Counted from the stretch's first letter, positions 39,504-64,000 are shown. The stretch is DNA of 64,000 bases from an uncultured Verrucomicrobiota bacterium (GCA_964548925.1 CAZJTM010000005.1:1689-65688); one strand, 5' to 3'. Numbers and translations are program-made. Notes: a model not told the origin generated them from the letters alone.

Positions 39504-39596
39504 TCCCATGAATTCAAAGCGTCCACGGATTGAAGGCGAGGAACAGTCCCCGTTACTCCACTTTGCCAGATCCTTGAACGCTTCGAATCCTTGGGA
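39504..39596. repeat. Family-1 repeat doublet
   Basis: 39504-39531 (tcccatgaattcaaagcgtccacggatt) and 39570-39596 (atccttgaacgcttcgaatccttggga). The arms are complementary at 22/27 positions, with a 38-nt spacer. Confidence 0.7.
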
Positions 39597-39614
39597 CCAC
39601 CCTCACCACCTTCC

Positions 39615-39986
39615 ATGAGTGCGAAAATCCTCCTGATCGAAGACAACGAACAGAATTGCTACCTCGCCACGTTTCTGCTGGAGAAGCACGGCCACACGGT
39701 GATTCACACCCCGGATGGCCGGTCGGGCATTGAACTTGCCACCGCCCAGCCCTTCGATCTCATCCTGCTGGACATCCAGTTGCCCGGCATGGATGGCCAC
39801 GCCGTGGCGCGGGCGCTGCGGTCAAACCCCGCCCTCAACCACATCCCGATTGTCGCGGTCACATCCTACGCCATGGCCGGCGACCGCGAGAAGGCGCTTG
39901 CCGCCGGCTGCAATGGCTATCTCGAGAAACCCATTGATCCGGACACCTTCGTCGCCCAAGTTACCTCCTTCTTGTCATCTTTATGA
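39615..39986 (+). CDS. Stand-alone response regulator receiver (CheY-like)
   Basis: MSAKILLIEDNEQN...FDLILLDIQLPGMDG...VAVTSYAMAGDREKALAAGCNGYLEKP. Confidence 0.9.
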   Translation: MSAKILLIEDNEQNCYLATFLLEKHGHTVIHTPDGRSGIELATAQPFDLILLDIQLPGMDGHAVARALRSNPALNHIPIVAVTSYAMAGDREKALAAGCNGYLEKPIDPDTFVAQVTSFLSSL

Positions 39987-41731: not shown

Positions 41732-41788
41732 GGAGCGCGCTCCCCATGACTTGGCACTATTCACAATGCGATTCAGGGGCTACGGTTC

Positions 41789-43591: not shown

Positions 43592-43604
43592 CCGCAACTG
43601 AACT

Positions 43605-45974
43605 ATGGCCAGAATCCTAATCGTAGATGACGAGAAAAGCATCCGCCGCACGCTCGGAGAATTCCTCCGCGCCGAAGGCTACGAGGTCTTCGAAGCCGAG
43701 GACGCGGACGCGGCCCAACAGCGGTTGCGCGAGGCGGAGTTCGATGTGGTGGTCAGCGACATCATCCTGCCGCGGGTCACGGGGGTGGAATTGCTCCGCC
43801 GCATTCACGCCTCGTCACCTCATGTGCAGGTGGTAATGATGACCGGCGAGCCGACGGTGGAAACCGCCACCGAGGCGCTCCGGGCCGGCGCCGCCGACTA
43901 CCTGTTCAAACCCATCACCAAGGCCGCCATCCTGCGCGCGGTCGCAAACGCGGTCCGCATCAAATCGCTGGAAGACACCCGGCGGCGCTTGGAGGTCGAG
44001 AATCAGGCGCACCGCGAAAACCTCGAGCGGCTGGTGACAGAGCGCACAGCGCAGTTGCAGGAGAGCGAACGCCGTTTTCGCAGCTTGTACGAGAACGCCC
44101 TGATGGGGCTTTACCGCACCACGCCAGATGGCCGGATACTGCTCGCCAATCCGGCGCTGGTGAGCATGTTGGGCTACGAATCTTTTGATGCCCTTGCGCG
44201 CCAGAATCTCGAAACGCGGGGGTTTCACCCCGATTACCCGCGGCAGCAGTTCAAGGAACGGCTGGAGGGCGAGGGCAGCGTGCAGGGCTTGGAGAGCGCC
44301 TGGACCCGCGCAGACGGCTCTACGGTTTTCGTCCGGGAAAGCGCCTGCACGGTTCGGGACGATGCCGGCGGGGTTTTGTATTACGACGGCGTGGTGGAAG
44401 ACATTACCGAACGCAAACGCGCGGAAGACCAGTTGCGCAAACTCGCCCGCGCTGTGGAACAGTCGCCTGCCTCCATTGTCATCACTGACCGCGCCGGCAA
44501 CATCGAGTTCGTGAATCCCAAGTTTTCCCAGGTCACGGGCTACACGGCGGAGGAAGTCGTGGGCCGGAATCCGCGTATCCTCAAGTCCGGCGAAACGACG
44601 GCGGAGGAATACCGGCAACTCTGGGAAACCATCACCGCAGGCCGGGAGTGGCACGGGGAGTTCCACAACAAGCGCAAGGACGGCACGCTGTTTTGGGAAA
44701 CGGCGTCTATTTCCCCCATCCGGGATGCCGCGGGGGAAATCAAGCATTTCATCGCGGTCAAGGAGGACGTGACCGAACAAAAGCTCACGCAGGCCAAGTT
44801 GCTGCGGGCGCAGCGTGTGGAGAGCATCGGCAGCCTGGCCAGCGGCATCGCGCATGACTTGAACAATATTCTCACACCCATCCTCATGTGCGCGCCGATG
44901 CTGCAATTGGATGACTCGCCCGAAACCCGGCGCGAGTTGGCGCAAACCATCGAGACGAGCGCGCAGCGGGCGGTGGGCATCGTGAAGCAACTCCTCAGTT
45001 TCGCGCGCGGCAAGGAAGGGCAGAAACAGCCGTTGCAAATGCGGCACCTGGTGCGCGACATGGCCAAAATCATTCGCGAAACCTTTCCCCGGAGCATTCA
45101 GGTCGAGGAGGACTGCGACCCGAATCTCTGGCCGGTGCTGGCGGACGCCACCCAGTTGCACCAAGTGCTCCTGAACCTCTGCGTCAACGCCCGGGACGCC
45201 ATGCCCGGCGGCGGCAAACTCACGCTCGAAGCGGCGAATGTCACCCTCGACGAGCATTTTGTGGCCATGCACAAGGAGGCCGAAGCCGGGCCGTTCGTGC
45301 GGCTGCGGGTCACGGACACCGGCACCGGGATTCCCGAGACGGTCCAGGCCCATATCTTTGAATCCTTCTTCACCACCAAGGGTGAAGGCGCGGGCACCGG
45401 CCTGGGGCTCTCCACCGTGAAGGGCATCGTCAAGAATCACAAGGGATTCATCACGTTCACGACCGCGCCCGGGCGGGGCACCACCTTCGAAGTCCATTTA
45501 CCCGCCGCGACGGAAGCCCGATCCACGGCGGAGCAAACCGTCCAGACAAGGGCGATGCCGCGGGGCGAGGGGGAACTCATTCTCGTGGTGGACGACGAGC
45601 CGGCCATCTGCGATACCACGCGGCGCACCTTGGAACGGCAGGGATACCGCGTGCTTCAGGCGCATAATGGGATCGAAGCGCTTGCTCAATACTCCGCGCA
45701 CCAACAAGAAGTTCGCGCGGTGGTGACGGATTTCATGATGCCGCTGATGGATGGCGTCACGTTGTGCCGCGCGTTGCGGGCGCTGTCCCCGCAAACGCCG
45801 TTGGTCGTGTCCAGTGGCGGCTTGTTTGGCAAGGTGGGCGCGGAGGCAAGCCGCGCTCTTGAGGAACTCGGTGTGCGCCATGTCTTGCAAAAACCGCACA
45901 ACGCCGACTTGCTCCTCCAGACTCTGTGCGAAGTGCTGGGGAGGCCGGTCAGCACCCCGCGGATTCAACCATGA
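43605..45974 (+). CDS. Hybrid REC-PAS-PAS-HisKA-HATPase-REC histidine kinase
   Basis: MARILIVDDEKSIR...VVSDIILPRVTG. H-box GIAHDLNNILTPI. NLCVNARDAM, DTGTGI, GTGLGLS. The C-terminal REC reads LILVVDDEPAI...VVTDFMMPLMDG. Confidence 0.9.
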   Translation: MARILIVDDEKSIRRTLGEFLRAEGYEVFEAEDADAAQQRLREAEFDVVVSDIILPRVTGVELLRRIHASSPHVQVVMMTGEPTVETATEALRAGAADYLFKPITKAAILRAVANAVRIKSLEDTRRRLEVENQAHRENLERLVTERTAQLQESERRFRSLYENALMGLYRTTPDGRILLANPALVSMLGYESFDALARQNLETRGFHPDYPRQQFKERLEGEGSVQGLESAWTRADGSTVFVRESACTVRDDAGGVLYYDGVVEDITERKRAEDQLRKLARAVEQSPASIVITDRAGNIEFVNPKFSQVTGYTAEEVVGRNPRILKSGETTAEEYRQLWETITAGREWHGEFHNKRKDGTLFWETASISPIRDAAGEIKHFIAVKEDVTEQKLTQAKLLRAQRVESIGSLASGIAHDLNNILTPILMCAPMLQLDDSPETRRELAQTIETSAQRAVGIVKQLLSFARGKEGQKQPLQMRHLVRDMAKIIRETFPRSIQVEEDCDPNLWPVLADATQLHQVLLNLCVNARDAMPGGGKLTLEAANVTLDEHFVAMHKEAEAGPFVRLRVTDTGTGIPETVQAHIFESFFTTKGEGAGTGLGLSTVKGIVKNHKGFITFTTAPGRGTTFEVHLPAATEARSTAEQTVQTRAMPRGEGELILVVDDEPAICDTTRRTLERQGYRVLQAHNGIEALAQYSAHQQEVRAVVTDFMMPLMDGVTLCRALRALSPQTPLVVSSGGLFGKVGAEASRALEELGVRHVLQKPHNADLLLQTLCEVLGRPVSTPRIQP

Positions 45975-48812: not shown

Positions 48813-50093
48813 TCACCGTTTGAAATACCGGTCCGCGAACACCAGGTACTGCTCCCAATCGTAATCGGTCACGTCGTGTTTGCCGGTGCGGACATGGTAA
48901 CCGATCGTCGCGCCGACCGGCGTCTTCACGGGCGGTTGTTCAGTCCCGCCCAAGCCGGCTTTCCGGTAGAGCTGGTACACCGGCTCGGCCGCCCGCGCCG
49001 CCAGGAATTCGCCGCGCGGATCCGCCCAGCGATCCTCCTCCGCGCTGGCCACGTAGAGCGGGCGCGGGGCAATGAGCGCCAGCAACTCGTGTTGGTCCAC
49101 CGGCAGCGCGTCCTCACGTTCGGAATACTGCTTGAAGTTGCCGCAGAACCAGTGCGGGAAGCGCCGGTTCAAATCCCCGGTCCGTTCGCCAAAGCGCCGC
49201 CGCGCCAGAGCCGCGCCTCCTTCGCCAGACTCGTTTGAGATGACGATGGCAAACCGCTGGTCCTGCGCGCCCGCCCACAGAGCGGTCTTGCCGAGCCGCG
49301 AGTGGCCCAGCAAAGCCACGCGCTTCGCGTCAATCGTTCGGTCGGTTTCCAGGTAATCCAACGCGCGGCTCAGTCCCCACGCCCAAGCGCCAATCGCGCC
49401 CCATTCGCCGGGCTGGAATGCCGTGTTCGTGCCCGCCGGACTCAGGGCCGCGCGCAGACCCAGCTTCCAACCCTCGGCAAAGTCCGGCTCGATGTCCCCG
49501 TAGTAGGCCGTGACGAGCGCGTAGCCGTGCGTGAGAATCTTCTCGACCGGCCAGCGCGAGGCCTCGCGTCCCCTGCCCGCTTCCGTGGCGCGGTTGTTCG
49601 TCACCCCGCTGCCTTGCGGCAGCCAACTGCCCGCGAGTTGGACGGCGGGATCGCTGGTCACGGCGTGATTGCCGCCAAAGTTCAGGCCCAGAAATGCCGG
49701 CACCCGCCCTTTGACCCCGTTGGGTCGGAAGATCAGCAGGTTCAGACTCGGTCCACCCTCTCGACCGGTGAGCCAAACGGTGACTTCCTTCCGCGTGGCC
49801 TTGCCGCCGAACGCGTCGGTCGCTTGCGAGATGATCTCGCACGGCAGCCGACGCTGAGGCCTTTGAGGCGCGCGGCCATACACCTGTTCCTCGAACAACC
49901 GTAGCAGTTCCGGCCGGCGCTTCTTCTCCCAAGTCCTGACAGTGCTGATCCGCGTGCCGTCCGCACAAACCAACGGATCGGGCAACGTGTACGCCGGAAC
50001 TTGAGCTTCGTCGTAGTTTGGCGCGGCGGGTTGGGCCGGCGCCGCAGCGATCCATGCGGTGAAACCGATGGCCAGGACGGAATGCAATTTCAT
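48813..50093 (-). CDS. Secreted alpha/beta hydrolase, CE15 glucuronoyl-esterase-like
   Basis: MKLHSVLAIGFTAWIAAAPAQP signal peptide. GHSRLGKTALWAGAQDQRF (GxSRxGK nucleophile motif of CE15), ...SNESGEGGAAL...HVRTGKHDVT. Confidence 0.6.
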   Translation of the reverse strand: MKLHSVLAIGFTAWIAAAPAQPAAPNYDEAQVPAYTLPDPLVCADGTRISTVRTWEKKRRPELLRLFEEQVYGRAPQRPQRRLPCEIISQATDAFGGKATRKEVTVWLTGREGGPSLNLLIFRPNGVKGRVPAFLGLNFGGNHAVTSDPAVQLAGSWLPQGSGVTNNRATEAGRGREASRWPVEKILTHGYALVTAYYGDIEPDFAEGWKLGLRAALSPAGTNTAFQPGEWGAIGAWAWGLSRALDYLETDRTIDAKRVALLGHSRLGKTALWAGAQDQRFAIVISNESGEGGAALARRRFGERTGDLNRRFPHWFCGNFKQYSEREDALPVDQHELLALIAPRPLYVASAEEDRWADPRGEFLAARAAEPVYQLYRKAGLGGTEQPPVKTPVGATIGYHVRTGKHDVTDYDWEQYLVFADRYFKR

Positions 50094-50347
50094 AACGCGG
50101 TGATCCCATCGCGCGGCGGTTGGTCGGGACTTCCGGAGGCCGGCCGCCGGGCGACGCGTCCATAATCGGCGCGGAAACCAAAACTGCAAGACTTCAAAAA
50201 TGGAGGTGAGGCCAAGTCGGCAATGCCAGCCAGGCGGAGGACGGTTGTAACACACTTCCAAATGTGTGTACACGCGCGTTGCGACTTTTCACTCGCGCCA
50301 AACATGGCTAGAAAGCCGAGAGTGCGCGGCCTGTTCCCGGAGCCACG

Positions 50348-52737: not shown

Positions 52738-52878
52738 GGTCGTCTCCATCTGGGCAACCGGCAAGACCTGCCTCCCCTGCCCCGTCCGCTCGCTTGCAAC
52801 CGCGTTTCCGCCTGTTCCGCTTCCAAGGCTGCGTTTCTCAAATTGCCTCGCCGGCGCCATCCTTGGTATCGTTCGCCC

Positions 52879-54405
52879 ATGCTCGCAAAGGTGTGCTCCG
52901 CCGCCGTCAACGGCATTGACGCCTATCCGGTCGAAGTGGAGGTGAACGCCGGCTGGGGCGATACCCTCGTGGTCATCGTCGGTCTCCCCGACACTGCCGT
53001 GAAAGAATCGCGGGATCGCGTCTCGACCGCGCTGACCAACTCCGGCTTCAAGTTCCCCATGGGCCGCACCACCGTCAATCTCGCGCCGGCCGATGTGAAG
53101 AAGGAGGGGCCGAGCTTTGATCTCCCCATCGCGCTCGGCATGCTGGCCGCCAGCGAGCAGATCGAAACGGATCAACTCGACCACTTCGCCGTTGTCGGGG
53201 AACTCGCGTTGACCGGCGGCGTGCGGCCCTGCAAAGGCGTGCTGCCCATTGCGCTCTGCGCAAAGGCCCAAGGCAAAGTCGGAGTCCTCGTGCCCGCGGA
53301 GAACGCCGCGGAAGCCGCCGTCGTCGAGGGCCTGCAAGTGATCCCCGTCCAGAATCTGCGCGAGGCGGCGGCCTTCCTCGAAGGTGAAATCCGCCTGGCG
53401 CCGGTGAAGGTGGACGTCGCCGGCATCTTCGATCAACCGCTCGACAATGATGTGGATTTCTCCGAGGTGAAGGGGCAGGAGTCCGTCAAGCGCGCCCTGG
53501 AAATCGCCGCCGCCGGGGGACACAACGTCCTGCTTATCGGGCCGCCCGGCACCGGCAAATCCATGCTGGCGAAGCGCCTCCCCACCATCCTGCCGCCGCT
53601 CACGCTGGAAGAAGCGCTGGAGACAACGAAGATTCACAGCATCGTGGGCCAACTTGCGCCCGGGCAGGCGCTGATCACGCGCCGCCCCTTTCGCGCGCCG
53701 CACCACACCGCCAGCGATGCCGGCCTCTTGGGCGGCAACATCAATCCGACCCCCGGCGAGATTTCTCTGGCGCATCACGGCGTGTTGTTTCTCGACGAAT
53801 TGCCCGAGTTCAAACGCAGCGTCTTGGAAACCATGCGCCAGCCGTTGGAGGAGGGCCGCGTGACGATCTCGCGCGCCGCCGGCACAATGACGTTCCCCGC
53901 GCAGTTCATGCTCGTGGCCGCGATGAACCCGACCCCCGACGGCAAGATGCCGGGCGAATCCCGCTGTTCCCCGCGCGAAATCCACAACTACCTCAACCGC
54001 ATTTCCGGCCCGTTGCTCGACCGCATTGACCTGCACGTGGAAGTGCCGGCGGTGAAGTTCCGTGAGATCACCACCGATCACGTGGGCGAGACTTCGGCCC
54101 AAGTCCGCGAACGCGTCGTGGCCGCGCGCCGTCGCCAGCAAGAACGGTTCAAGGGAAAACCGAAGGTCACGTGCAACGCCCGCATGGGTCCGCGCGAGCT
54201 CAAATCGTGGTGCAAGCTGGACGAGGCGACGACGGAACTCCTCAAGTTCGCGATGGCCGACATGAACCTGAGCGCCCGCGCCTACGACCGCATCCTGAAG
54301 GTCGCCCGCACGATTGCCGACCTGGCCGGCACGGAGGCCATCTTGGCGGATCACGTAAGCGAGGCGATCCAGCTCCGCTCGCTCGATCGGCAGATTTGGG
54401 GTTGA
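52879..54405 (+). CDS. comM: YifB/ComM family Mg-chelatase-like AAA+ ATPase
   Basis: MLAKVCSAAVNGIDAYPVEVEV...FDLPIALGML...LLIGPPGTGKSMLA...GVLFLDELPEF. Confidence 0.9.
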   Translation: MLAKVCSAAVNGIDAYPVEVEVNAGWGDTLVVIVGLPDTAVKESRDRVSTALTNSGFKFPMGRTTVNLAPADVKKEGPSFDLPIALGMLAASEQIETDQLDHFAVVGELALTGGVRPCKGVLPIALCAKAQGKVGVLVPAENAAEAAVVEGLQVIPVQNLREAAAFLEGEIRLAPVKVDVAGIFDQPLDNDVDFSEVKGQESVKRALEIAAAGGHNVLLIGPPGTGKSMLAKRLPTILPPLTLEEALETTKIHSIVGQLAPGQALITRRPFRAPHHTASDAGLLGGNINPTPGEISLAHHGVLFLDELPEFKRSVLETMRQPLEEGRVTISRAAGTMTFPAQFMLVAAMNPTPDGKMPGESRCSPREIHNYLNRISGPLLDRIDLHVEVPAVKFREITTDHVGETSAQVRERVVAARRRQQERFKGKPKVTCNARMGPRELKSWCKLDEATTELLKFAMADMNLSARAYDRILKVARTIADLAGTEAILADHVSEAIQLRSLDRQIWG

Positions 54406-54413: not shown

Positions 54414-54869
54414 ATGCGCTTCTTCCTGATTGACAAGATCACCCGCTGGGAAGTCGGCGTGCTCGCGGAAGGCGTGAAGAATGTTGCGCTGAGCGAGGAC
54501 TTCTTTGACGACCATTTTCCGCGGCGGCCCGTCATGCCGGGGGTACTGATCCTCGAAGGCATGGCCCAGCTCTCGGGTTTGCTGCTCGAAGCCAGCCTGC
54601 AACAGAAGCACGGGACGAATGCCAAGGCGGTCCTCACGGTTCTGGAGAAAACGAAGTTCCGCACGCTCGTGAAGCCGGGCGACACGCTGAGCTACCGGAC
54701 GGAGGTGGTGTCGGTGAACGAGGCCGGAGGCAAGGTCAAGACCACGGCCTTTCGCGGGGAAACCGTGGTGACTTCCACGGAAATGGTGTTCGCCTTCAAG
54801 CACGTTGACGACCCGCTGCTGGACGAGAAGCGGCGGCGGTTGATGAATTTGTGGATGAAAGGCGGTTGA
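54414..54869 (+). CDS. FabZ-type 3-hydroxyacyl-ACP dehydratase (canonical His/Glu)
   Basis: FFDDHFPRRPVMPGVLILEGMAQL. First gene of the coupled operon, 8 nt after comM. Confidence 0.8.
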   Translation: MRFFLIDKITRWEVGVLAEGVKNVALSEDFFDDHFPRRPVMPGVLILEGMAQLSGLLLEASLQQKHGTNAKAVLTVLEKTKFRTLVKPGDTLSYRTEVVSVNEAGGKVKTTAFRGETVVTSTEMVFAFKHVDDPLLDEKRRRLMNLWMKGG

Positions 54870-54883
54870 CGGCGGAGGGAACC

Positions 54884-56011
54884 ATGGGCGGCGCCATTGT
54901 CATCACGGGAATCGGCTTGGTCACGCCGCTCGGTGACAATCCACGCGAGGTTCTGCGCCGGATCGAGGCGGGAGAATCAGCCGCGTCGCCGCCGATGGGT
55001 TTCGATGCCACGCCTTTCGCGTGCCCCGTGTGTGCAGAGGTGAAGGATTTCCGACCGCAAGCGCACGTCGCGGAGGTCAAACGCCTCCGCCTGATGAATC
55101 GCGACGCCCAACTAGCCGTCGCTGCCGCGCGATTGGCGCTCCAGGATGCACGGCTCGAAGTCGGCGTGGACTATCGGCCGGACGAGATCGGTCTGTTCGC
55201 GGCCACCGGTCTGGCTGGGCTTCCGCTGGCGGATGTCACGCCGCTGATTCGGACCTCAACGTCGTCCGACGGGCAGTTCGATCTCGCGCAATTCGGTCAA
55301 GCCGGTTTGCGGTCAGTCAGCCCGATTCTCTCGTTCAAGATTCTCAGCAACATGCCGCTCTGCTTCGTTTCAATCTGCGAGAACATCCGGGGCGCGAACG
55401 CCGTATACACACCGTGGGAAGGACACGGCGCCCAAGCCATTGAGGCTGGCGTGCGCGCGATTCAATGCCGCGATGCACGATGCGCTGTTGTCGGCGGGTG
55501 CGACGTCAAAACGCACGAACTGGCTTTCATGAATCTGGAGCAGCACAGGCTGTTCGATTCGTGGAAAACAGAGCGGGTCGGCGTGATTCCAGGAGAGGGA
55601 GCGGTGTTCCTGGTGCTGGAGGAAGAGCAGGCAGCAGTAGCGCGAGGCGCGCGAACCTATGCCCACCTGGGGCGATCCAGCTTTTCCACTATGCACCCGA
55701 GGGGGCGAAGACAGGAAGCGCTGGTCCAAATGCTGCGGAGGCTTGGCTGCGCCGGTCCTGCGTCAATTGTCGCGGCCGGCGAGGATGACCCGGCAAGCCG
55801 CCAGGACGAGGAGGCGGCATTGCAGGCTGCTGGCATCAAAGCTGACACGACGCTGCATCCCAAGCGGCATGTGGGCAATCTGTTCGCAGCCGCCGCACTG
55901 CTGCAAATCGCGCTAGCCGCCTTGCTGGTCGAGCGATTTGGGCGACCGGTTCTGGCGAACTGCTTGGGCCACGGCAGCGAACAGGCGGCATTTGTCCTGG
56001 AATCCACATGA
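54884..56011 (+). CDS. Ketosynthase-like protein lacking the active-site Cys (chain-length-factor-like partner)
   Basis: Thiolase/KS fold (IVITGIGLVTPLG...). The position of the catalytic Cys reads NAVYTPWEGHGAQAIE instead of ..STACA(T/S)G... The KS His motifs are also absent. SD GGAGGG lies at 54875-54880. Confidence 0.75.
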   Translation: MGGAIVITGIGLVTPLGDNPREVLRRIEAGESAASPPMGFDATPFACPVCAEVKDFRPQAHVAEVKRLRLMNRDAQLAVAAARLALQDARLEVGVDYRPDEIGLFAATGLAGLPLADVTPLIRTSTSSDGQFDLAQFGQAGLRSVSPILSFKILSNMPLCFVSICENIRGANAVYTPWEGHGAQAIEAGVRAIQCRDARCAVVGGCDVKTHELAFMNLEQHRLFDSWKTERVGVIPGEGAVFLVLEEEQAAVARGARTYAHLGRSSFSTMHPRGRRQEALVQMLRRLGCAGPASIVAAGEDDPASRQDEEAALQAAGIKADTTLHPKRHVGNLFAAAALLQIALAALLVERFGRPVLANCLGHGSEQAAFVLEST

Positions 56012-57270
56012 GCCGGCGCGTGGTCATCACGGGATTGGGACTCTGCACTCCAGTGGGGCGCAGCGTGGATGAGTGCTGGCAGAATCTGCGAGCCGGACGC
56101 TCGGGCATTGGCCCGATCACGCTGTTTGACGCTGGCGCGTTGCCGGTGCGCATAGGTGGCGTAGTCAAGAAACTGGAGATCGCCCGGCTCGCGGAGAAGT
56201 TTCCCGTCGTTGCCAGCGAAAAGGATCGCAAGCTTTGGCTCGGATTGGACGCAGCTTCGCAGGCTTTCGCGGATTCCGGAATTCCAGCAGTCGCCTTCGA
56301 GCGGGCGTTGTTGCTGGTGGGCGTGAGTCTGGAAGCCTTCTTCTTGGAGCAGGTCACGCCAGTAGTTCAGGCGGAGAACTTGGCTCGGGCGCTCGCGGAA
56401 CGGCTGTTGCGGCAACGATGCGTGGAGAGACTACAGACACCACTGGATCGCCTGACCCAGATCCTCGGCGACTATTACGGAGTGCAAGGCCGTCGTTTCA
56501 CGAATGGCTCGGCTTGCGCCGCGGGAGCGCAGGTGATTGGCGAGGCGTTTCGCAGACTCCGCGACGGCTCGGCGGACGTGGCCATCGCGGGCGCGACGGA
56601 CAGTTCGCTGAATCCCCTGGGGCTCGGCGGTTTCAGCCTGCTCCAAATCCTTTCCACCGAAAACGAACAACCGCAGACGGCCTGCCGCCCGTTCGATGCC
56701 ACGCGCCAGGGGACGGTTCTCGCTGAAGGTGCGGCTTTCGTGGTGATGGAGGCGCTGGAGCATGCGCAACATCGCGGCGCACGCATCTACGCAGAAGTGC
56801 TTGGCTACGGCTCGTCGCTGGACGCCTACCGCGTCACCGATCCAGAACCGACCGGTCGGGGCGCGGCGTTGAGCATAGCCAAGGCGATCCAGGATGCGGG
56901 GTTGACACCCGGCGAGATTGATTGCGTCAACGCGCACGGCACCGGCACGCCCAAGAATGACGTGGCCGAAACGCTCGCCATCAAGCAGACTCTCGGCAAG
57001 CGCGCGTATGAGGTGCCCGTGACGGCGAACAAATCCATGACCGGCCACATGATTGCCACGAGCGGCGCAGCGGAAGTCATCGTCTCGGCTATGACACTGT
57101 TCCGCCGGGAAGTCCCGCCGACGATCAACCTCACCCATCGCGATCCTCAGTGTGACTTGGACTACGTGGCCGATGGCTGCCGGGCGTTTGGCGGGCGCAC
57201 GGTTCTGTCAAACTCATTCGGCTTCGGAGGGCAGAACGCCAGTTTGGTGTTCGGAAGATACGAACCATGA
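56008..57270 (+). CDS. fabF: Beta-ketoacyl-ACP synthase II-like (catalytically complete)
   Basis: [30 protein letters not shown] (Cys), [11 protein letters not shown] (His), [14 protein letters not shown] (His). ATGA overlap upstream. Confidence 0.9.
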
Positions 57271-58007
57271 AACGTGTTGCCTTGATCACGGGCGCGTCGC
57301 GCGGCATCGGCCAAGCCATCGCCGAAGAACTGGCGCGGCGGGGGCATCGGGTGGCGGTTGGCTTCCGCGAGCGTGCAGACGCGGCGCAAGCAGTGGTGGA
57401 GGGCATCCAGCACGCCGGCGGCGAGGGTTTCAGCATTCAACTCGACGTGACCAACGCCGCGGACTGCAACGCCGTCGCCGCCAGCATCCGCGAGCGTTGC
57501 GGGCGCCTCGACATCCTGGTGAACAACGCCGGCGTCACGGACGAATCGCCTGCGCTCGCGATGGAGGACTCCGCGTGGGAGCGTGTGCTCGCCGTCTGTC
57601 TCACCGGCGCGTTTCAACTGTCCCGGGCCTGCGCCAAATCCATGGTGCTGGGACCCTGGGGGCGGATCGTGAACATTTCGTCCGTCGTTGCCAGCCAAGG
57701 CGGACGCGGCCAGGCGAATTACGCGGCGGCGAAGGCCGGGCTGGAAGGGTTGACGCGAGCGCTCGCGATTGAGTTGGCGCCCCGCGGCATCCTCGTCAAC
57801 GCGGTGGCGCCGGGCGTGGTCGAGACTGAAATGTCGCAGCCAGTCCTACAGCGGCACGGCGGACGCATTTTGAGCCACATCCTGTTGGGCCGCGCAGGTC
57901 GGCCCACCGAGATCGCCAGTCTGGTTGCCTACCTCGTATCGGACGAAGCCTCCTACATCACCGGCCAGGTCTTCCGCGTGGATGGCGGTTTTGGGTTGAA
58001 CCTATGA
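57267..58007 (+). CDS. fabG: 3-oxoacyl-ACP reductase (classical SDR)
   Basis: [30 protein letters not shown] overlap. Confidence 0.9.
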
Positions 58008-58663
58008 TGGGCTACGACGATCTGCTTGAGTTGCTGCAGTCACGCCGTTCGCATCGGCGCTTCGAGGAGCGGGCGGTTGATCGGGAAGACATACGGCGCT
58101 TGCTTGAAGCGGCAGGCTGGGCGCCGTCCAACCACAACCGCCAGCCGTGGCGATTCCTTGTCCTGGAAGACCGGCAGGAGATTCAAGCACTGGCTGAAGG
58201 AGTCGGACGAAGTCTTGCGACGAGGCTGGAGTCGCTGCCGGCGGTGGCATCGGCTTACACCGCAGAGCTGGCGGAACACGCAGTGCTTTTCGGGCGGGCG
58301 CCACTGCTCATCGTGGCGTTGCACAAACATCCCGTTAGCGTGTCTGCCGCGCTGTTGGAAGGCGTAAGCCAGCCAGAACTGGTTTCCGGAGAGCCGCTCA
58401 GCGTGGCGATGGCGGTGGAGAATCTCCTGCTCGCGGCCCACGCGCTGCGGCTGGGCGCTTGCGTCATGACCGCGCCATTGTTGGCGCAGAATGTCGTGCG
58501 GAATTACTTGGCCGTACCGCCCAGTTTCGAGATCACGTGCTTCGTAGCAGTGGGGCATCCGGCGGAATTGCCCGTGCCGCCGCGCAGGAAAAAACTCGAA
58601 CAGATTGCCGAGTTCAGAAATGATCGCCGGCGTTCCGGGAATACCAAAGATGACGGACCTTGA
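58004..58663 (+). CDS. Nitroreductase-family flavoprotein
   Basis: [49 protein letters not shown] overlap. Confidence 0.85.
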
Positions 58664-59063
58664 AATCTTAGGAGAGTTGAAGCCCTTACTCGTGGAGGTG
58701 TTGGGCGTCGCGCCAGAGCAGATCCGGATGGAGAGCGTGCTGGTGGCGGACTTAGGTGCAGAATCCATTGACCTGCTGGACTTGAGCTTCCGCATCGAGG
58801 AGCAGTTCAAGGTGAGGATTGAAGCCAACGAGATCGAGCGCGAGGCGAGGAAACGCCTTCCCGGTGGCGTGTTTGAGAAAGACGGTTGCCTGACGGACGA
58901 GGCGCTGGCCGAAATCCGCAAGTCCATCCCTGAACTCGATCCAGCCAAACTCGTGAAGGGCCTGCGCAAGATGGATCTGCCGTCGCTGCTCACGGTCGCG
59001 TTCTTCGTGCATCTGATCGCGCGTAAGCTGGCAGCCAAGACAGAAGGAGTCGCCCATGCTTAA
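58650..59063 (+). CDS. Acyl carrier protein with ~60-aa C-terminal extension
   Basis: LKPLLVEVLGVAPEQIRMESVLVADLGAESIDLLDLSFRIEEQF (phosphopantetheine Ser in the AESID context). 137 aa in total. It overlaps the neighbours by 14 and 8 nt. Confidence 0.7.
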   Translation: MTDLEILGELKPLLVEVLGVAPEQIRMESVLVADLGAESIDLLDLSFRIEEQFKVRIEANEIEREARKRLPGGVFEKDGCLTDEALAEIRKSIPELDPAKLVKGLRKMDLPSLLTVAFFVHLIARKLAAKTEGVAHA

Positions 59064-59784
59064 TGGGCGCACAGCCTTCGTGACAGGCGGCACGGGTGCG
59101 GTCGGCGTCGCGATCGTGCGATGTCTCGCCCGGCATGGCGCGCGAGTGGCGTTCTCGTTCCATGACAACGAAGACAAGGCCCACGAGCTCGAGCGCGAGT
59201 TCGCCGGAAAGCCGGTCAAGGCGTGGAAGCTCGATGTGTTGGAGGCGGCGGCGACCGTGCGGCTGGCGGAGATGGTGGAGCAGGAGTTGGGCGCAGTGGA
59301 CATTCTGGTGAACAACGCAGGCATCACCCAAGTGATGCCATTTGCGCTGATCGAGGAGGAAGACTGGGATCGGATCATGGACGTGAACGTGAAGGGGATG
59401 TTCCTTGTCACGAAAGCGTTTGTGCGGCCGATGATCCGCCGGAAGGCCGGGAGCATCGTCAACCTCGGCTCGCTAGCCGGCATGCGAGTGTTGGAAGTCC
59501 CGGTGCATTACGCCACAGCCAAGAGCGCCGTGGTGGGTTTTACCCTCGCACTCGCCCGCGAACTCGCGCGCTACGGCATCCGGGTCAACGCCGTCGTGCC
59601 CGGCCTGCTCACCGACGGCGTGAGCGGGAATGTGCCGGACAAGCAGCGGGAGGATTACGTGCAGCATTGCAGCGCAGGCCGAGCGGGCAAACCGGAAGAG
59701 GTCGCGGAACTCGTGGCGTTCCTCGCCAGCGAGCGCGCCAGCTACATTAACGCCCAAGCCATCCACGTTGACGGAGGCATCTGA
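59056..59784 (+). CDS. Second SDR ketoreductase (FabG-like)
   Basis: AFVTGGTGAVGVAIV, NNAG, YATAKSAV. SD GAAGGAG lies at 59043-59049. Confidence 0.85.
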   Translation: MLNGRTAFVTGGTGAVGVAIVRCLARHGARVAFSFHDNEDKAHELEREFAGKPVKAWKLDVLEAAATVRLAEMVEQELGAVDILVNNAGITQVMPFALIEEEDWDRIMDVNVKGMFLVTKAFVRPMIRRKAGSIVNLGSLAGMRVLEVPVHYATAKSAVVGFTLALARELARYGIRVNAVVPGLLTDGVSGNVPDKQREDYVQHCSAGRAGKPEEVAELVAFLASERASYINAQAIHVDGGI

Positions 59785-60227
59785 TGAAGTTCCGGTTCGT
59801 GGACAAGATCCTCGCGTGGACGCCGCACCAGCGGATCGTCGGTGTTAAGGCGGTGTCGTTCGAGGAGTATTGCCTGAAGGAACCGTTTGGCGACGAGGCG
59901 AAGCTGCCGGAGACGCTGCTGTTGGAGAGTTTCCTGCAACTGGGAAATTGGCTGCTGCTCCTTTCTTCGGATTTCAACCAAATGGGAATGGTCATCCGAA
60001 TTTCGGAGGCGCGCTTCCATGATGCACTCCGACCAGGCCAGCAAGTGCGCATGGAAGTGACTCTGTCCCGACGGCACGAGGATGGTTTTGAGCTGTCAGG
60101 CGAAGGCACGGTGGACGGGCGCACCATCATCACGGGTCTGGGTTGCCTTGCGGCGACAATCCCGGCCACTGAGTATGTGAAGCCGGACGACCTGCGCGTG
60201 CTGTTCTCGGAAATCTACCAGCCCTGA
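59784..60227 (+). CDS. Hotdog-fold FabZ/FabA-like protein lacking the catalytic His
   Basis: MKFRFVDKILAW...KEPFGDEAKLPETLLLESFLQLG aligns to the FabZ HFP..P.MPGVL..EA.AQ region, with KEPF instead of DHFP. TGATG junction. Confidence 0.6.
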   Translation: MKFRFVDKILAWTPHQRIVGVKAVSFEEYCLKEPFGDEAKLPETLLLESFLQLGNWLLLLSSDFNQMGMVIRISEARFHDALRPGQQVRMEVTLSRRHEDGFELSGEGTVDGRTIITGLGCLAATIPATEYVKPDDLRVLFSEIYQP

Positions 60228-60241
60228 GAGATTCTACCGGC

Positions 60242-61672
60242 GTGAGATCGTCCCGTCCATACACCTACCTGGGCACGGTGACCGGCATGTGCCGGCAATG
60301 CCGTGCGCTGGTTCCGGCGCGAGTGCTGGAGACGGACGGCGCGGTGTTTCAAGAGCGGCTCTGCCCGACGTGTGGCCCATCCCGAGCGCGCATCGCGGAT
60401 GACGTGGACTGGTATCTGGAGCGAACTGCGACCACCGTCCGCTGCAAGCCGGCCCGCCAGCCATGTTCATCGGTGATGGCGGGTTGCCCGCACGATTGCG
60501 GTCCCTGCCAGTTCCATGCGAACGCCTGCCACCTGCCGGTGTTCTCCGTCACGAACGCCTGCAACATGAACTGCCCGATCTGCTTCACCTACAACCGGGC
60601 GGATCGGAAGTATTTCATGGGCCGCAATGAGCTGCACGCGCTGCTGGACCGACTCATCGCGCGGGCCGGGCCGTTCGATTTGATCAACATCACCGGCGGC
60701 GAGCCGACACTGCATCCGGATATTCTGGAGTTGCTGCGGGAGTGCCAGCGACCCGAAATCGGGCGCGTAACGATGAACTCGAACGGGCTTCGCCTAGCTG
60801 CGGACGAGGACTTGTGCCGGGCATTGGCAGACCTGGGTGTTTACGTTGTGCTTTCCTTTGACACGTTCCGCAGCGAAAGGTCGGCGAAGATTCATGGGCG
60901 GGATGTGGTGGAGGTCAAGCGGCGGGCACTGGCGAACCTCCAGCGCTTCGGCGTCGGCACCACGCTGCTTAACGTCATGATCCGGGGGCTGAACGATGAT
61001 GAGATCGGCGATGTCATCGCGCTGGCCCGGAACCACCCGGTGGTGCGCAGCGTGACGGTCCAGACGATGACGTTCACCGGCCACGGCGGAAGGAACTTCC
61101 AGCCGCGCGAGACGATGCCGCTGGACGGGGCGGCCAAGGCCATCGAAACGGCGACAAACGGGGCGCTGCGCGCATGCGACTTCTTCCCGCATGCCGGGGC
61201 GCATCCCCTTTGCTACAGCGTGGCCTACTACCTCAAGGACCAAGACCACTACCGGTCCTTGACGGACTTGTTCACGGTCGAGCAACTGCGGCAGATGCTT
61301 GACCATGGCTATCTCCTGCAACCGGGCGAGGACAGTCAGGATGTGTTTCGCAGTGCTATTGACCGCCTGTGGGCAGCCGGAGACACCGCGGAGGTTCTGC
61401 CGTCCCTCCGGCGACTTGTGGAACAGATGTATCCACCGGGCTGGGTTCTGTCGCCAGCAGAGCGCCAAGCCGTGGCTGAAAAGAACCTGCTCGCCGTTTA
61501 CCTTCACTCGCACATGGACGAGGACACGCTCGACCTTGGTCGTCTGTCGACGTGCCCCGACCAGGTACCTGACCCGGACGGTCGCCTCATTCCAGCGTGC
61601 GCCTACAATCTTTTTTACCGCGAGAAAGATCCGCGGTTTTGGCGCCCATCTGAAATCGGAGGCCGGCAATGA
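60242..61672 (+). CDS. Radical SAM enzyme, Tes/MJ0619-like architecture (paralogue 1)
   Basis: CRQC...CPTC knuckles, GCPHDCGPCQFH...C auxiliary cluster motif, CNMNCPIC (Cx3Cx2C), GGEPTL. C-terminal ...YLHSHMDEDTLDLGRLSTC...DGRLIPACAYN. GTG start. Confidence 0.85.
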   Translation: MRSSRPYTYLGTVTGMCRQCRALVPARVLETDGAVFQERLCPTCGPSRARIADDVDWYLERTATTVRCKPARQPCSSVMAGCPHDCGPCQFHANACHLPVFSVTNACNMNCPICFTYNRADRKYFMGRNELHALLDRLIARAGPFDLINITGGEPTLHPDILELLRECQRPEIGRVTMNSNGLRLAADEDLCRALADLGVYVVLSFDTFRSERSAKIHGRDVVEVKRRALANLQRFGVGTTLLNVMIRGLNDDEIGDVIALARNHPVVRSVTVQTMTFTGHGGRNFQPRETMPLDGAAKAIETATNGALRACDFFPHAGAHPLCYSVAYYLKDQDHYRSLTDLFTVEQLRQMLDHGYLLQPGEDSQDVFRSAIDRLWAAGDTAEVLPSLRRLVEQMYPPGWVLSPAERQAVAEKNLLAVYLHSHMDEDTLDLGRLSTCPDQVPDPDGRLIPACAYNLFYREKDPRFWRPSEIGGRQ

Positions 61673-62271
61673 ACTCTACCGGCAGCCCAGCGCCCCAGGA
61701 CGGACGCGAACGATTCGCTCGATTTCTCGCCGGCGAAACAGCCGATCGCGTCTTCAGTCATCCCACGTGTCATCCATCACAACCGACAGGCTTCTGTCCG
61801 TGCGACCGTCCCTTGCTAGCCCGGCTGAGGTTTTATGTGCGAGCATGGCTGCTGCTGGCGGTGCTGAAGCAGGCCTTCAACCGACCCAAGATTGCGCTGT
61901 TGCGGCGGTTCGGCGCCCGAGTGGGCCGCAACGTGTATCTCTCGGCCGACCTTTGGATTGACCCCACGTTTCCCGAACTGCTTACCATCGAAGACGACGT
62001 GCTGGTCGGCGTGGGCGTCAAAATCGCGCTCCACGAATTCGGGCCGAACCAGTTTCGTGCCGGGCGGGTCATCATCCGGAAGGGCGCGGTGATCGGGGGC
62101 TTTGCGCTAATCGGGCACGGCGTGGAGATCGGCGAGGGCGCGGTCGTGGCCGGCGGCACTGCAGTGGGCCGCGACGTGCCGGCGGGCAAACTGGCGGTGG
62201 GCAACCCGGCCAGAATCTTCGCGCTGCCCGACGCTGGCGGCGGGACTCTGGACAGCTCAATCCATGAGTGA
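61669..62271 (+). CDS. Membrane-anchored hexapeptide-repeat (LbH) acyl/acetyltransferase
   Basis: A hydrophobic helix (YVRAWLLLAVL), then IEDDVLVGVGVKI...IRKGAVIGGFALIGHGVEIGEGAVVAGGTAVGRDVPAGKLAVGNPARI. ATGA overlap. Confidence 0.75.
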   Translation: MNSTGSPAPQDGRERFARFLAGETADRVFSHPTCHPSQPTGFCPCDRPLLARLRFYVRAWLLLAVLKQAFNRPKIALLRRFGARVGRNVYLSADLWIDPTFPELLTIEDDVLVGVGVKIALHEFGPNQFRAGRVIIRKGAVIGGFALIGHGVEIGEGAVVAGGTAVGRDVPAGKLAVGNPARIFALPDAGGGTLDSSIHE

Positions 62272-63646
62272 ATACCTCACCAGCACACGATCCACCTGCA
62301 AGACTTGCCTGCGGCTGGTTGCCGCACAGGTTTTCGTCGAATCGGACGGCATCTGGCTGCGCAAGATTTGCCCCGATCACGGGCCGCAGAGGACGCGTGT
62401 TTACGGAGACGCGGAGAGCTACTTGAGGTTGGGGCATTTCCATCGGCGGGCCTCGTTGCCGCTGGCCTTCGCCACGGAGAACAAGGGTTGTCCGGATTCC
62501 TGCGGGCTTTGCCCCGATCACGAACAGCACATCTGCCTCCCGATTATCGAAATCACCGATCACTGCAACCTGGAATGTCCAATTTGCCTGGTGACCAATC
62601 CCGGCACCTACCACCGCACGCGGGAAGAGGTGGCACGTGTGCTGGACGCACTCATCCGATCCGAAGGTCAGATTGACGTGCTGAACCTTTCCGGCGGCGA
62701 GCCGACATTGAACCCGCACTTCCGCGTAATCATCGAGGAATGCGTTGGACGAAAAGAAATCCTCCGGGTCAGCGTCTCCACGAACGGTTGCGTGCTCGCG
62801 CGCGACGCCGACCTGCTGCGCTTCCTCGCCGAACGCCGGGTGATCGTCTCGCTCCAGTTCGACGGCCAGCACGACGACATCCATCGAACGCTGCGCGGGC
62901 GGCCGATGCTCGAAGAGAAACGGCGGTTGATCGAACAGTGTGCGGCGCTGGACGCGGCCATGTCGCTCACGGCCACGGTGGTTGCGGGGGTCAACGACAC
63001 GCGGCTGGTGGAGATTGCCGACCTGCTGTTCGAGCACGACCACATTCTGAGCGTGATGTTTCAGCCGGCGGCGTACGCGGGCCACGCCACCGCGCTGGGT
63101 CGCCCAGTGGACGCAGCGACCATTCCCGATGTGATTGCGGCACTGGAAGGAGCCGGAGCCGGAACGGTTTCGAAGGGGGATTTTTCGCCGTTGCCGTGCA
63201 GCCATCCGGCCTGTTTCTCGCTGGCGTTCTACCTTCGAGTCGAGGATCACGCTTACCGGCCCGTCAAGCAGCTAGTCAGCGCGGAACGCTATCTGGACCT
63301 CATCCAAAACCGCGCGATCTTTGGGACGGACGCCGATAGCTTCGCTCAGATCAGCGAGGCCGTTTACGAACTGTGGTCCGGCCCGGCGGCGTTGTCGCCG
63401 GATTCGCAGAAGGCACTTCAGGCGGTCCGACGTCTGCTGGCTGAGAGCACGAGCGGCGGTGGTTACGCACCAAAGAAGGCGCTCACCGTCGCTGAACATT
63501 CCGTGAAGTCTATCTTCATCCACCAATTCATGGACCCGGAGACGTTCGATCTGTCGCGGGCGCGGAAGTGCTGCCAGGTCTATCCGCAGCCGGATGGGCG
63601 AATGATCCCGGTCTGTGTTCGTAACTGCGTGAAGGGCTGCTCATGA
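62264..63646 (+). CDS. Radical SAM enzyme, Tes/MJ0619-like architecture (paralogue 2)
   Basis: CKTC...CPDH, GCPDSCGLCPDHEQHIC, CNLECPIC, GGEPTL, PLPCSHPACFS. C-terminal IFIHQFMDPETFDLSRARKCC...DGRMIPVCVRNC. Confidence 0.85.
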   Translation: MSEYLTSTRSTCKTCLRLVAAQVFVESDGIWLRKICPDHGPQRTRVYGDAESYLRLGHFHRRASLPLAFATENKGCPDSCGLCPDHEQHICLPIIEITDHCNLECPICLVTNPGTYHRTREEVARVLDALIRSEGQIDVLNLSGGEPTLNPHFRVIIEECVGRKEILRVSVSTNGCVLARDADLLRFLAERRVIVSLQFDGQHDDIHRTLRGRPMLEEKRRLIEQCAALDAAMSLTATVVAGVNDTRLVEIADLLFEHDHILSVMFQPAAYAGHATALGRPVDAATIPDVIAALEGAGAGTVSKGDFSPLPCSHPACFSLAFYLRVEDHAYRPVKQLVSAERYLDLIQNRAIFGTDADSFAQISEAVYELWSGPAALSPDSQKALQAVRRLLAESTSGGGYAPKKALTVAEHSVKSIFIHQFMDPETFDLSRARKCCQVYPQPDGRMIPVCVRNCVKGCS

Positions 63647-64000
63647 CACCGATCCCCAAAAGAACGCTGATGGCAGTGAACCTGTTCGCATTCGCACTTT
63701 GTGCCGCGATGATTCTGGGCGGATGGTGGAACTACGCGCCTCCACTGATTCCGACGACCGCGCAAGGTGGAACAGCGCTTGAAAACGGACTGCCCATGAC
63801 GGACAAACCGGATTCGCAACCGACGGCGACCTCCCGGCCCATGTCGGTTCTGAAACAGTGGATTGTCGTGATCACAGCGTTCGGCGTGAAGCCGGTTTAC
63901 CTGCTCGTGTCGCTCGCAGTCATCATTGTGCTGTGGCGGCGGCCGGCGCCGGATTTGACAGCGCTGCGCTGGGGCCTGATCTGGTTTTGGGTCGGCGAAC
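63643..64000 (+). CDS. Polytopic membrane protein, N-terminal part (runs off window)
   Basis: ATGA overlap with the radical SAM stop. The frame stays open to the window end. MTPIPKRTLMAVNLFAFALCAAMILGGWW...WIVVITAFGVKPVYLLVSLAVIIVLW...WGLIWFWVGE. Confidence 0.45.
   Translation, partial: MTPIPKRTLMAVNLFAFALCAAMILGGWWNYAPPLIPTTAQGGTALENGLPMTDKPDSQPTATSRPMSVLKQWIVVITAFGVKPVYLLVSLAVIIVLWRRPAPDLTALRWGLIWFWVGE

Follow-up and report, generated by a model that had tools for sequence, protein, structure and literature searches.

The last part of a 64,000-nucleotide stretch of DNA from an uncultured Verrucomicrobiota bacterium (GCA_964548925.1, CAZJTM010000005.1:1689-65688; this whole stretch is the window, and coordinates count from its first letter) carries an operon in which genes for fatty acid synthase (FAS)/polyketide synthase (PKS)-like chain assembly are joined to two radical S-adenosylmethionine (SAM) enzymes of the Tes/GDGT-MAS family, rSAM1 and rSAM2. 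By sequence, a ketosynthase (KS) and a dead, chain length factor (CLF)-like KS, two ketoreductases (KRs), FabZ and a His-less hotdog protein, a flavoprotein and a long acyl carrier protein (ACP) are coupled to the radical SAM pair. We give about an even chance to the reading that the operon is a dedicated acyl-ACP assembly set for a specialized lipid with a modified tail, which would be cross-linked or cyclized by Tes-like radical chemistry. The Tes enzyme class has never before been placed in a FAS/PKS-like cluster of type II that includes radical SAM tailoring; literature on radical SAM, Tes, KS/CLF, ACP, Verrucomicrobia and ladderane yielded no description of this cluster, and a 2026 review of lipid-modifying radical SAM enzymes makes no mention of a Tes-type enzyme in a FAS context (PMC13459092).

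The operon genes in the window, and two further radical SAM genes that follow on contigs with an identical rSAM2, are listed below (aa, amino acids; SDR, short-chain dehydrogenase/reductase).

54414-54869, + strand: FabZ-type 3-hydroxyacyl-ACP dehydratase (FabZ), 151 aa; Pfam FabA match, E=1.2e-23
54884-56011, + strand: KS partner (KSb), chain-length-factor-like, 375 aa; only the N-terminal ketoacyl-synt domain matches Pfam
56008-57270, + strand: FabF-like ketosynthase (KSa), 420 aa; both KS domains match Pfam
57267-58007, + strand: SDR ketoreductase 1 (KR1), FabG-like, 246 aa; adh_short_C2 match, E=3e-66
58004-58663, + strand: nitroreductase-fold flavin mononucleotide protein (NTR), 219 aa; Pfam Nitroreductase match, E=5.9e-32
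58650-59063, + strand: ACP, 137 aa; PP-binding match at residues 10-62
59056-59784, + strand: SDR ketoreductase 2 (KR2), 242 aa; adh_short_C2 match, E=3.5e-57
59784-60227, + strand: His-less hotdog protein (DH2; FabA/FabZ fold), 147 aa; Pfam FabA match, E=5.2e-9
60242-61672, + strand: radical SAM 1 (rSAM1), Tes/GDGT-MAS family, 476 aa (461 aa if it starts at ATG 60287); Zn_ribbon_HMPTM and Radical_SAM matches
61669-62271, + strand: left-handed beta-helix (hexapeptide) acetyl/acyltransferase, 200 aa (144 aa in the NCBI call); Hexapep match
62264-63646, + strand: radical SAM 2 (rSAM2), Tes/GDGT-MAS family, 460 aa; matches to TrsS/Tes models and 7TOL
63643-64000, + strand: polytopic Cys-rich membrane protein, 5' part, cut by the window edge; called from hydropathy, no known family
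matching contigs, after the membrane protein gene with a 4-nt overlap: third radical SAM gene (rSAM3), 343 aa
matching contigs, opposite strand, convergent with rSAM3: fourth radical SAM gene (rSAM4), 341 aa

Twelve successive open reading frames (ORFs), read from the window sequence, occupy 54414-64000, all on the + strand. Their junctions comprise 4-nt ATGA overlaps at 56008, 57267, 58004, 61669 and 63643, overlaps of 14 nt at 58650 and of 8 nt at 59056 and at 62264, and a TGATG junction (1-nt overlap) at 59784, while the ORF at 60242 is preceded by a 14-nt gap. KSb has two candidate starts, ATG 54884 (375 aa, 14-nt gap) and GTG 54851 (386 aa, 19-nt overlap), the former being more likely, as a GGAGG lies ahead of it and the NCBI gene call begins there. 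The original prediction, made from the window sequence alone, had described a coupled + strand operon from 54414 to the edge, and each junction it placed is matched in the sequence. Its gene content (FabZ, a dead and a complete KS, two KRs, a flavoprotein, a 137-aa ACP, a His-less hotdog protein and two radical SAM enzymes) agrees with the Pfam, NCBIfam and motif assignments, its polytopic membrane protein has at least five strong hydrophobic segments, and its view that no characterized cluster has this gene set agrees with the literature search.

Gene identities were taken from Pfam and NCBIfam, with active-site motifs checked in orthologue alignments. FabZ has its catalytic His and Glu, keeps the HFP and LILEGMAQ motifs in 19 orthologues, and scores 111.6 bits with the NCBIfam fabZ model (equivalog cut-off 155.15); a precomputed annotation places an ApeI-like domain on it. 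The Cys-His-His triad of KSa is intact (SACAAG, AHGTGT, TGH) and kept in orthologues, and its fabF score is 400.2 bits (equivalog cut-off 493.75). The gene of this active KS adjoins that of its triad-less homologue KSb (24% identity) through an ATGA overlap, in a KS/CLF-type arrangement. KSb is without all three triad residues, and the His positions are lost in its orthologues too; aligned to FabF, it has Gly at the Cys position, within a PWEG[Q/H]GA motif shared by the orthologues, and the residue after this Gly is His in the window and Gln in five of seven sequences, in an alignment that could shift by one residue. In KS/CLF systems, decarboxylative priming goes with a Gln at the Cys-equivalent position of the CLF.

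KR1 and KR2 are 39% identical and both keep the Ser and the YxxxK motif; KR1 scores 271.7 bits with the FabG equivalog model (cut-off 297.75). DH2 has Lys/Glu where FabZ has His, the position being K/R-E/S in nine of nine orthologues, and retains the Glu; it is probably a non-catalytic or specialized partner of FabZ. In the ACP, the attachment Ser is kept (GAES) and is followed by a C-terminal extension of about 60 aa; the protein falls below the cut-off of every ACP model in NCBIfam (best 43.5 bits versus 71), and orthologues are long too (138 aa in locus L087, 145 aa in L020). NTR, which is syntenic in nearly all cluster variants, has weak best NCBIfam matches to BluB and to the C-terminal domain of FbiB, and albonoursin synthase and a BluB-like protein are among its neighbours in the PDB. 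The FbiB C-terminal domain is a nitroreductase-fold precedent for ene reduction, and NTR is a candidate ene-reductase or dehydrogenase.

Family searches with Pfam and NCBIfam found no canonical enoyl reductase, malonyl transferase (MCAT), thioesterase or glycerol-phosphate acyltransferase in the cluster, confirming four absences that had been predicted; fabD, fabH, fabI, plsX and acc genes are likewise absent from it. Other fab genes were not seen in the annotated parts of the 64-kb window, relatives being covered by stretches of about 21 kb. KSa, KR1 and KR2 do pass the loose NCBIfam 'subfamily' FabF/FabG thresholds, as housekeeping fatty acid genes lying by chance beside unrelated radical SAM genes would. 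This explanation was considered and rejected, and we regard it as very improbable: every equivalog cut-off is missed by the FAS-like proteins, the 137-aa ACP is atypical, the cluster is without fabD, fabH, fabI, plsX and acc, the FAS genes are joined to the radical SAM genes by overlapping stop and start codons, and the association is kept across at least eight phyla despite rearrangement. Judged by the missed equivalog cut-offs, the atypical ACP and the lack of fabD, fabH, fabI and plsX, the operon clearly appears, from its sequence, to be non-housekeeping in character.

The two radical SAM enzymes are paralogues (32% identity) with the same architecture, and their homology to archaeal GDGT-MAS (MJ0619; 7TOL; identity about 30%) is full-length, extending over the N-terminal rubredoxin-type ribbon, the radical SAM core and the C-terminal, Cys-containing cluster domain. 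7TOL aligns with residues 7-455 of rSAM2 in two segments (E=2e-51) and with residues 15-470 of rSAM1 (E=7e-46). In NCBIfam, the TrsS model (NF045646) is the top match of both (275 bits for rSAM2, 228.7 bits for rSAM1; cut-off 490), and the Tes model (NF045702) gives 226.6 bits for rSAM2 and 223 bits for rSAM1 (cut-off 450). The best curated families are thus Tes and TrsS and not cofactor or peptide maturases, in keeping with the original prediction, which had called both proteins Tes/MJ0619-like. TrsS, a radical SAM (seleno)protein, differs in that the window proteins have no selenocysteine and no Tso partner genes were detected here; TrsS is not described in the selenoprotein preprint of Haft and Gwadz, and a 2026 review merely lists it.

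Metal ligands were compared by our own reading of the 7TOL alignments against the ligands published for GDGT-MAS (PMC9433317). In rSAM2, the rubredoxin-type CX2CX20CX2H motif (C12/C15/C36/H39), the auxiliary CX3CX2C plus His motif (C76/C80/C83/H86) and the radical SAM CX3CX2C motif (C101/C105/C108) are invariant in 13 orthologues, and the equivalent of Tyr459 is kept (CCQVY). The auxiliary and radical SAM motifs are kept in both paralogues, with Cys replacing His in the ribbon of rSAM1. Tes/GDGT-MAS couples the termini of two phytanyl chains in archaeal ether lipids and does so as one enzyme, whereas the window has two diverged paralogues, in an acyl-ACP operon of bacteria whose phylum is not known to make such lipids.

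The association of these genes is conserved. A scan with one genome per species gave 80 loci, to which one further annotated locus (L087) was added, and the window's 16 proteins were placed on them by tblastn-anchored maps plus gap ORFs. More than 1600 rSAM2 homologues were found at E<=1e-20, the best 120 at 62-87% identity, with the named ones from metagenome-assembled genomes (MAGs) of Verrucomicrobiota; carriers come from peat (SPRUCE), stratified lakes (Lac Pavin), soil and groundwater. The order FabZ-KSb-KSa-KR1-NTR-ACP-KR2-DH2-rSAM1-(hexapeptide protein)-rSAM2 recurs colinearly in seven or more other Verrucomicrobiota genomes (L008, L009, L010, L011, L015, L025, L087) and consistent in L007, L012 and L013, where contig ends intervene; L014 is rearranged. 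The same families are clustered in changed order, with rSAM2 identities of 38-49%, in at least seven other phyla, including Riflebacteria (L016), Elusimicrobia (L017), Muiribacteriota (L019), Deltaproteobacteria (L020), Acidobacteria (L026), Burkholderiales (L022, in the complete genome CP019169, and L023), Planctomycetes (L027, L039) and Myxococcota (L024, L028, L030, L031, L033, L034, L036). Conservation of gene order, proposed as a check when the operon was first described, is therefore borne out within Verrucomicrobiota, with re-clustering of the families beyond. The minimal shared set (L019) comprises FabZ, KSb, KSa, NTR, ACP, KR2, DH2, rSAM1 and rSAM2, and outside Verrucomicrobiota the gene directly downstream of the rSAM2 orthologue codes, in most loci, for a KR2-type SDR.

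Neighbour joining of 101 extracted bacterial sequences, with 7TOL as the root, places the cluster-linked rSAM1 and rSAM2 in two sister clades, which occur in such clusters only and lie apart from the distant homologues; Verrucomicrobiota and other phyla are present in each. Since each clade spans several phyla, the duplication is older than the spread of the cluster, and the enzymes have been kept as a pair. Bacterial homologues outside the two clades are nearly all without FAS neighbours, and those at 36% identity or less to rSAM2 have no FAS-type neighbours, with the single exception of a Tepidisphaeraceae peat MAG (L068 10001-16378), in which a Tes-like gene 32% identical to rSAM2 is followed by FabZ-ACP-FabZ-KS-KS, an apparently independent case of FAS-like genes beside a Tes homologue. 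Some clusters also hold a third Tes-family paralogue (L009 12422-13783; L020 6856-8265), about 32-33% identical to rSAM1 and on its own tree branch.

Some lineages carry additional genes. In L008 (11594-15372) and L010 (11649-14860), the membrane protein is replaced in the slot after rSAM2 by a fusion of a NifS-like cysteine desulfurase with a rhodanese and by a B12 radical SAM; in L008 this slot also holds an ICMT/MddA-type membrane methyltransferase. L087 encodes a rhodanese-fused membrane protein (10001-11290), rSAM3, rSAM4 and a B12 radical SAM. A class III aminotransferase is present in five variants (L022 11436-12806, L023 17185-18471, L026 7844-9650, L027 6336-8204, L030 1420-2826), with an N-terminal extension of about 200 aa in L026 and L027; the best family of the L022 enzyme is prodigiosin PigE, below cut-off, which suggests an aminated product in the aminotransferase-bearing lineages. 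L022 also encodes a flippase-like LPG_synthase_TM protein.

The proposed pathway for a tail-modified lipid would begin with the KS/CLF pair, which would prime by decarboxylation of malonyl-ACP and set the chain length on the long ACP, with FabD and a phosphopantetheinyl transferase borrowed from primary metabolism. Both type II PKSs and the anammox FabF heterodimer have been shown to prime in this way; in the latter, a FabF/dead-FabF heterodimer is a working KS/CLF of a FAS-like pathway with decarboxylative priming (bioRxiv 10.64898/2026.05.19.726425). Each beta-keto group would be processed by a KR and by FabZ/hotdog, and the flavoprotein would either replace the absent enoyl reductase or introduce or retain unsaturation. 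Each Tes-like enzyme would then remove a hydrogen atom from the alkyl tail at an unactivated carbon, and a C-C bond would be formed by way of the C-terminal auxiliary cluster, as in GDGT-MAS, giving a chain-to-chain cross-link or an intramolecular ring. KR2, the adjacent SDR, would work up the product, a leftover hydroxyl might be O-acetylated, and the Cys-rich protein may handle the lipid at the membrane. By analogy, C-C bond formation (cross-link or ring) is the most likely chemistry of the Tes-like pair, as it is the sole chemistry demonstrated for the Tes family.

Several observations weigh against this pathway. The substrates of GDGT-MAS are complete membrane lipids and not carrier protein-bound chains, and because the cluster holds no thioesterase and no glycerol-phosphate or lysophospholipid acyltransferase, a route from the ACP into a membrane lipid is not visible. 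Both window enzymes score far below the Tes cut-off, at about half of it (some 225 versus 450 bits). The labile Met439 ligand of GDGT-MAS is His in both rSAM1 and rSAM2, and the Cys preceding it is Ile or Leu; rSAM1 in addition has Val at the Tyr459 position and has lost one Cys of the CC pair. Owing to these scores and ligand changes, the chemistry may differ from C-C coupling. The relatives' accessory genes also point beyond simple chain dimerization: the PigE-like aminotransferase of the other-phylum clusters would suit release of an aldehyde or amine more than it would a membrane-spanning lipid, and argues that the products of the family are not simply membrane-spanning phospholipids, and the rhodanese and cysteine desulfurase genes of Verrucomicrobial relatives fit sulfur chemistry.

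The hexapeptide protein weakens a further step, the acyl transfer at the membrane that had been predicted. It resembles acetyl-CoA-dependent O-acetyltransferases and is missing from some relatives (L011, L012, L025); its best NCBIfam models, heptaprenylglyceryl-phosphate O-acetyltransferase and WcaF, are both far below cut-offs. The original prediction had described it as membrane-anchored, a claim left unsupported because the protein has zero segments above the Kyte-Doolittle transmembrane threshold and its nearest solved relatives, the best PDB matches, are soluble maltose/galactoside O-acetyltransferases. The polytopic protein encoded at the window edge is 342 aa in full (L002 9947-10975) and has no Pfam or NCBIfam family; comparison of its AlphaFold2 model (mean pLDDT 82) with the PDB gave only generic helical-bundle matches with TM-scores below 0.4, and no fold match. 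Its family of about 148 sequences (P0122-P0240 among them), from Verrucomicrobia-like sources only, has six invariant Cys, including a CX5CX2CX7C loop, and a rhodanese domain is present in about one-third of the members, at the N-terminus in P0202, the one fused protein looked at.

These rhodanese domains, which lie beside rSAM2, bear on an alternative that we consider unlikely, namely sulfur insertion. In GDGT-MAS, a sulfide of the C-terminal cluster transiently forms a bond to a substrate carbon (PMC9433317), and the Tes-like enzymes could stop at this carbon-sulfur stage and leave sulfur in the ACP-bound acyl chain by a logic like that of lipoate and biotin synthesis, giving a lipid or cofactor that bears a thiol, thioether or S-methyl group, while a dedicated sulfur relay would rebuild the sacrificed cluster. 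The desulfurase-rhodanese fusions of L008 and L010 would supply such a relay, and the ICMT/MddA-type methyltransferase belongs with them, the MddA family including a thiol S-methyltransferase. Also consistent with this alternative are the C-terminal cluster ligands, which differ from those of Tes (Met439 to His in both paralogues), the class III aminotransferase of variant clusters, as in the biotin pathway, and the listing of TrsS, the nearest NCBIfam family, next to the rhodanese/DsbD-like fusion selenoprotein TsoB (PMC13188914). However, the window's own operon has no rhodanese or desulfurase gene, so the system can do without a sulfur relay, and no relay genes were found among about 30 neighbours scanned in the clusters of other phyla. 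Where they do occur, they could simply serve the Fe-S demand of four or five multi-cluster enzymes, and BioB and LipA work without dedicated relay genes. BioB and LipA resemble the proposed system in acting on a FAS-derived acyl chain with an auxiliary Fe-S cluster near the substrate, and some relatives of the window cluster have sulfur-relay genes; no specific sequence relationship was seen, the window operon has no sulfur-relay gene, and the comparison is an analogy only.

A more specific form of this idea, slightly less probable again, is that the cluster-linked pair represents a new radical SAM branch acting on a carrier-tethered acyl chain, in which the auxiliary-cluster sulfur is retained and C-C coupling is not completed. 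If so, it would be a further biological route of sulfur insertion into a fatty acid-derived chain, beside lipoate and biotin synthesis; many Verrucomicrobia would supply a rhodanese/cysteine desulfurase relay and a Cys-rich membrane protein for it, and the product would be a sulfur-containing lipid or cofactor.

The composition of the assembly module raises the alternative of an aryl-polyene-like or other polyene, in which a conjugated polyenoyl-ACP would arise from KS/CLF, KR and a two-hotdog dehydratase acting without an enoyl reductase, the role of the radical SAM enzymes would be confined to its tailoring (cyclization, reduction or alkylation), and the product would be a minor envelope-associated protectant and not a core membrane lipid. 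The aryl-polyene type II PKS is reported (Grammbitter et al. 2019) to consist of a KS:CLF complex, a KR, a dehydratase complex of two hotdog proteins and an ACP. The window shares with the aryl-polyene and ishigamide systems the coupled active and dead KS, the SDR ketoreductases, the active and His-less hotdog proteins, the dedicated ACP and the lack of a canonical enoyl reductase. The ApeI-like domain annotated on FabZ and the presence of alpha,beta-dehydrogenases such as albonoursin synthase in the nitroreductase fold are likewise consistent with a polyene, as are antiSMASH 'ladderane'-type calls in Verrucomicrobiota, Myxococcota and Planctomycetota (PMC9902471). On the other hand, of the components typical of aryl-polyene clusters, an aryl-starter CoA ligase, a thioesterase, the lipid-anchoring lysophospholipid acyltransferases and glycosyltransferase and an MMPL-type exporter were not found among the 14 genes of the operon or in its flanks, and a LolA-like protein is absent from the cluster as well. 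The nitroreductase-fold flavoprotein and four radical SAM enzymes are additions relative to those systems, the KS is FabF-like, and with two KRs and a possible flavin ene-reductase full reduction would be possible. We consider a polyene product unlikely.

Bacterial Tes homologues, of which hundreds have been catalogued, are known from sequence surveys and have been proposed as synthases of brGDGTs, the branched glycerol dialkyl glycerol tetraethers, and thereby as sources of these palaeoclimate biomarkers (PMC8941075, PMC9433317, PMC11868695). Applied to the window, this would make the product a bacterial membrane-spanning lipid (brGDGT-like or diabolic acid-like), with the Tes-like pair joining two acyl tails tail-to-tail and the extra radical SAM enzymes methylating or cyclizing them. 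The carriers' origin in peat, stratified lakes, soil and groundwater fits such a product, and two Tes-like enzymes, two small radical SAM enzymes and a B12 radical SAM (L087, L008, L010) would suit coupling plus methylation or cyclization. A confirmed bacterial membrane-spanning lipid synthase, Mss of Thermotoga and Thermoanaerobacter, is a radical SAM enzyme that joins two fatty acyl tails (PMC13159169), the type of reaction proposed for the window enzymes. Mss is a different radical SAM enzyme from Tes, because its carriers have no Tes homologue detectable by BLAST (PMC13159169). Against a membrane-spanning lipid, known coupling enzymes use finished membrane lipids and need no private KS/CLF-ACP set, ether-forming (Ger/PlsA, ElbD) and glycerol acyltransferase genes are absent from the cluster, and sister clusters carry the PigE-like aminotransferase. 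We know of no Verrucomicrobium that makes membrane-spanning lipids. The Pontiella strains tested have no ether lipids (PMC11868695). We hold such a product to be distinctly doubtful. The preferred assignment remains the specialized, tail-modified lipid assembled on the operon's own ACP.

A ladderane-type pathway homologous to the anammox candidate cluster is disfavoured, its probability being close to negligible; to our knowledge, ladderanes are known only from anammox bacteria. The anammox candidate cluster encodes amxACP, amxFabZ, amxFabF2/amxFabFmut, a phytoene dehydrogenase-like enzyme and a B12 radical SAM (PMC10139942; PMC2649909). It thus has in common with the window a private ACP, FabZ and a FabF/dead-FabF heterodimer beside radical SAM genes (PMC10139942; PMC2649909; bioRxiv 10.64898/2026.05.19.726425). 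The radical SAM enzymes, however, are of the B12 type there and of the Tes type here, and the anammox-defining B12 radical SAM and phytoene dehydrogenase-like enzyme are both absent from the window and its continuation, which weakens the 'ladderane-like' element of the predicted product (PMC10139942). The B12 radical SAM enzymes found in relatives score 55-71 bits with the 'ladder' model (TIGR04072 type; cut-off 360), and in PDB searches with FabZ, the ACP and the KS partner, anammox proteins, including the FabZ and KS/CLF structures, were matched but never best. Judged by sequence, the resemblance to the anammox cluster is generic only.

The operon gives a distinct and widespread Tes-family pair a defined context of a dedicated carrier protein, a KS/CLF pair and reductive enzymes. 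From this context, the probable substrate is an acyl chain on the cluster's own ACP, and the chemistry is open to direct testing. Whether the product is a cross-linked, cyclized or sulfur-bearing lipid, it would provide the first functional assignment of a bacterial Tes-family enzyme and a new lipid trait of abundant, mostly uncultured Verrucomicrobiota of soil, peat and freshwater. In these phyla, genome-mining calls such as 'Tes homologue = brGDGT producer' or 'ladderane-type cluster' need to be reread in the light of gene context.

Extension of the operon past 64000, a check suggested with the original prediction, was possible on contigs with exactly the same rSAM2, from NCBI assembly GCA_036567685.1 and several sequencing-run assemblies; on contigs L001 and L002, with identical proteins, the rest of the membrane protein is followed by the two radical SAM genes rSAM3 and rSAM4, and then by an RNase-H-fold gene and mlaE/ABC genes. 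rSAM3 and rSAM4 are generic superfamily members in Pfam and NCBIfam, with weak best matches to the PTO1314 family, the mycofactocin maturase, MoaA and HpnH. At least 13 genes thus make up the operon here, against 14-15 in relatives. The RNase-H-fold/exonuclease-like gene (198 aa; 75% identity between L002 and L008) flanks the cluster in both genomes, downstream in L002 (13215-13811, - strand) and directly upstream of fabZ in L008 (1405-1980, + strand). In L087, a small gene and a PIN-domain gene, a probable toxin-antitoxin pair, lie between the hexapeptide gene and rSAM2 (7692-8473), the remaining operon being intact.

Upstream, a gene for a YifB-family Mg-chelatase-like AAA ATPase (window 52843-54405) ends only 8 nt before fabZ and may be co-transcribed with it here; the 5' end of the transcript is therefore not fixed by sequence. 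In relatives, yifB has no synteny to the cluster. Scans of the operon and its continuation for consensus sigma-70 promoters and intrinsic terminators gave results at or near chance and did not define transcript ends. Horizontal transfer was considered on the basis of composition and rejected, the G+C fraction of the cluster (0.62-0.65) being the same as in the rest of the window.

Elsewhere in the window, about 40 kb upstream of the operon, lies a sulfate assimilation neighbourhood (7758-16210) with a CysK-like pyridoxal phosphate enzyme (7758-8720), a CysA-type sulfate ATP-binding cassette ATPase (12907-14436) and a sulfite/nitrite reductase (14525-16210). The interval 31376-45974 encodes several large sensor histidine kinases that contain multiple PAS and GAF domains: one of 1397 aa (31376-35569), one of 1023 aa with a MASE1 domain (35557-38628) and a 789-aa hybrid receiver/kinase (43605-45974). 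Between them are ORFs of 131, 582 and 600 aa, the N-termini of the 131- and 582-aa ORFs being response regulator-like. An ORF at 48813-50273 (- strand) has a fungal-type glucuronyl esterase domain (PF22244), an activity of plant cell wall degradation that is typical of soil Verrucomicrobia.

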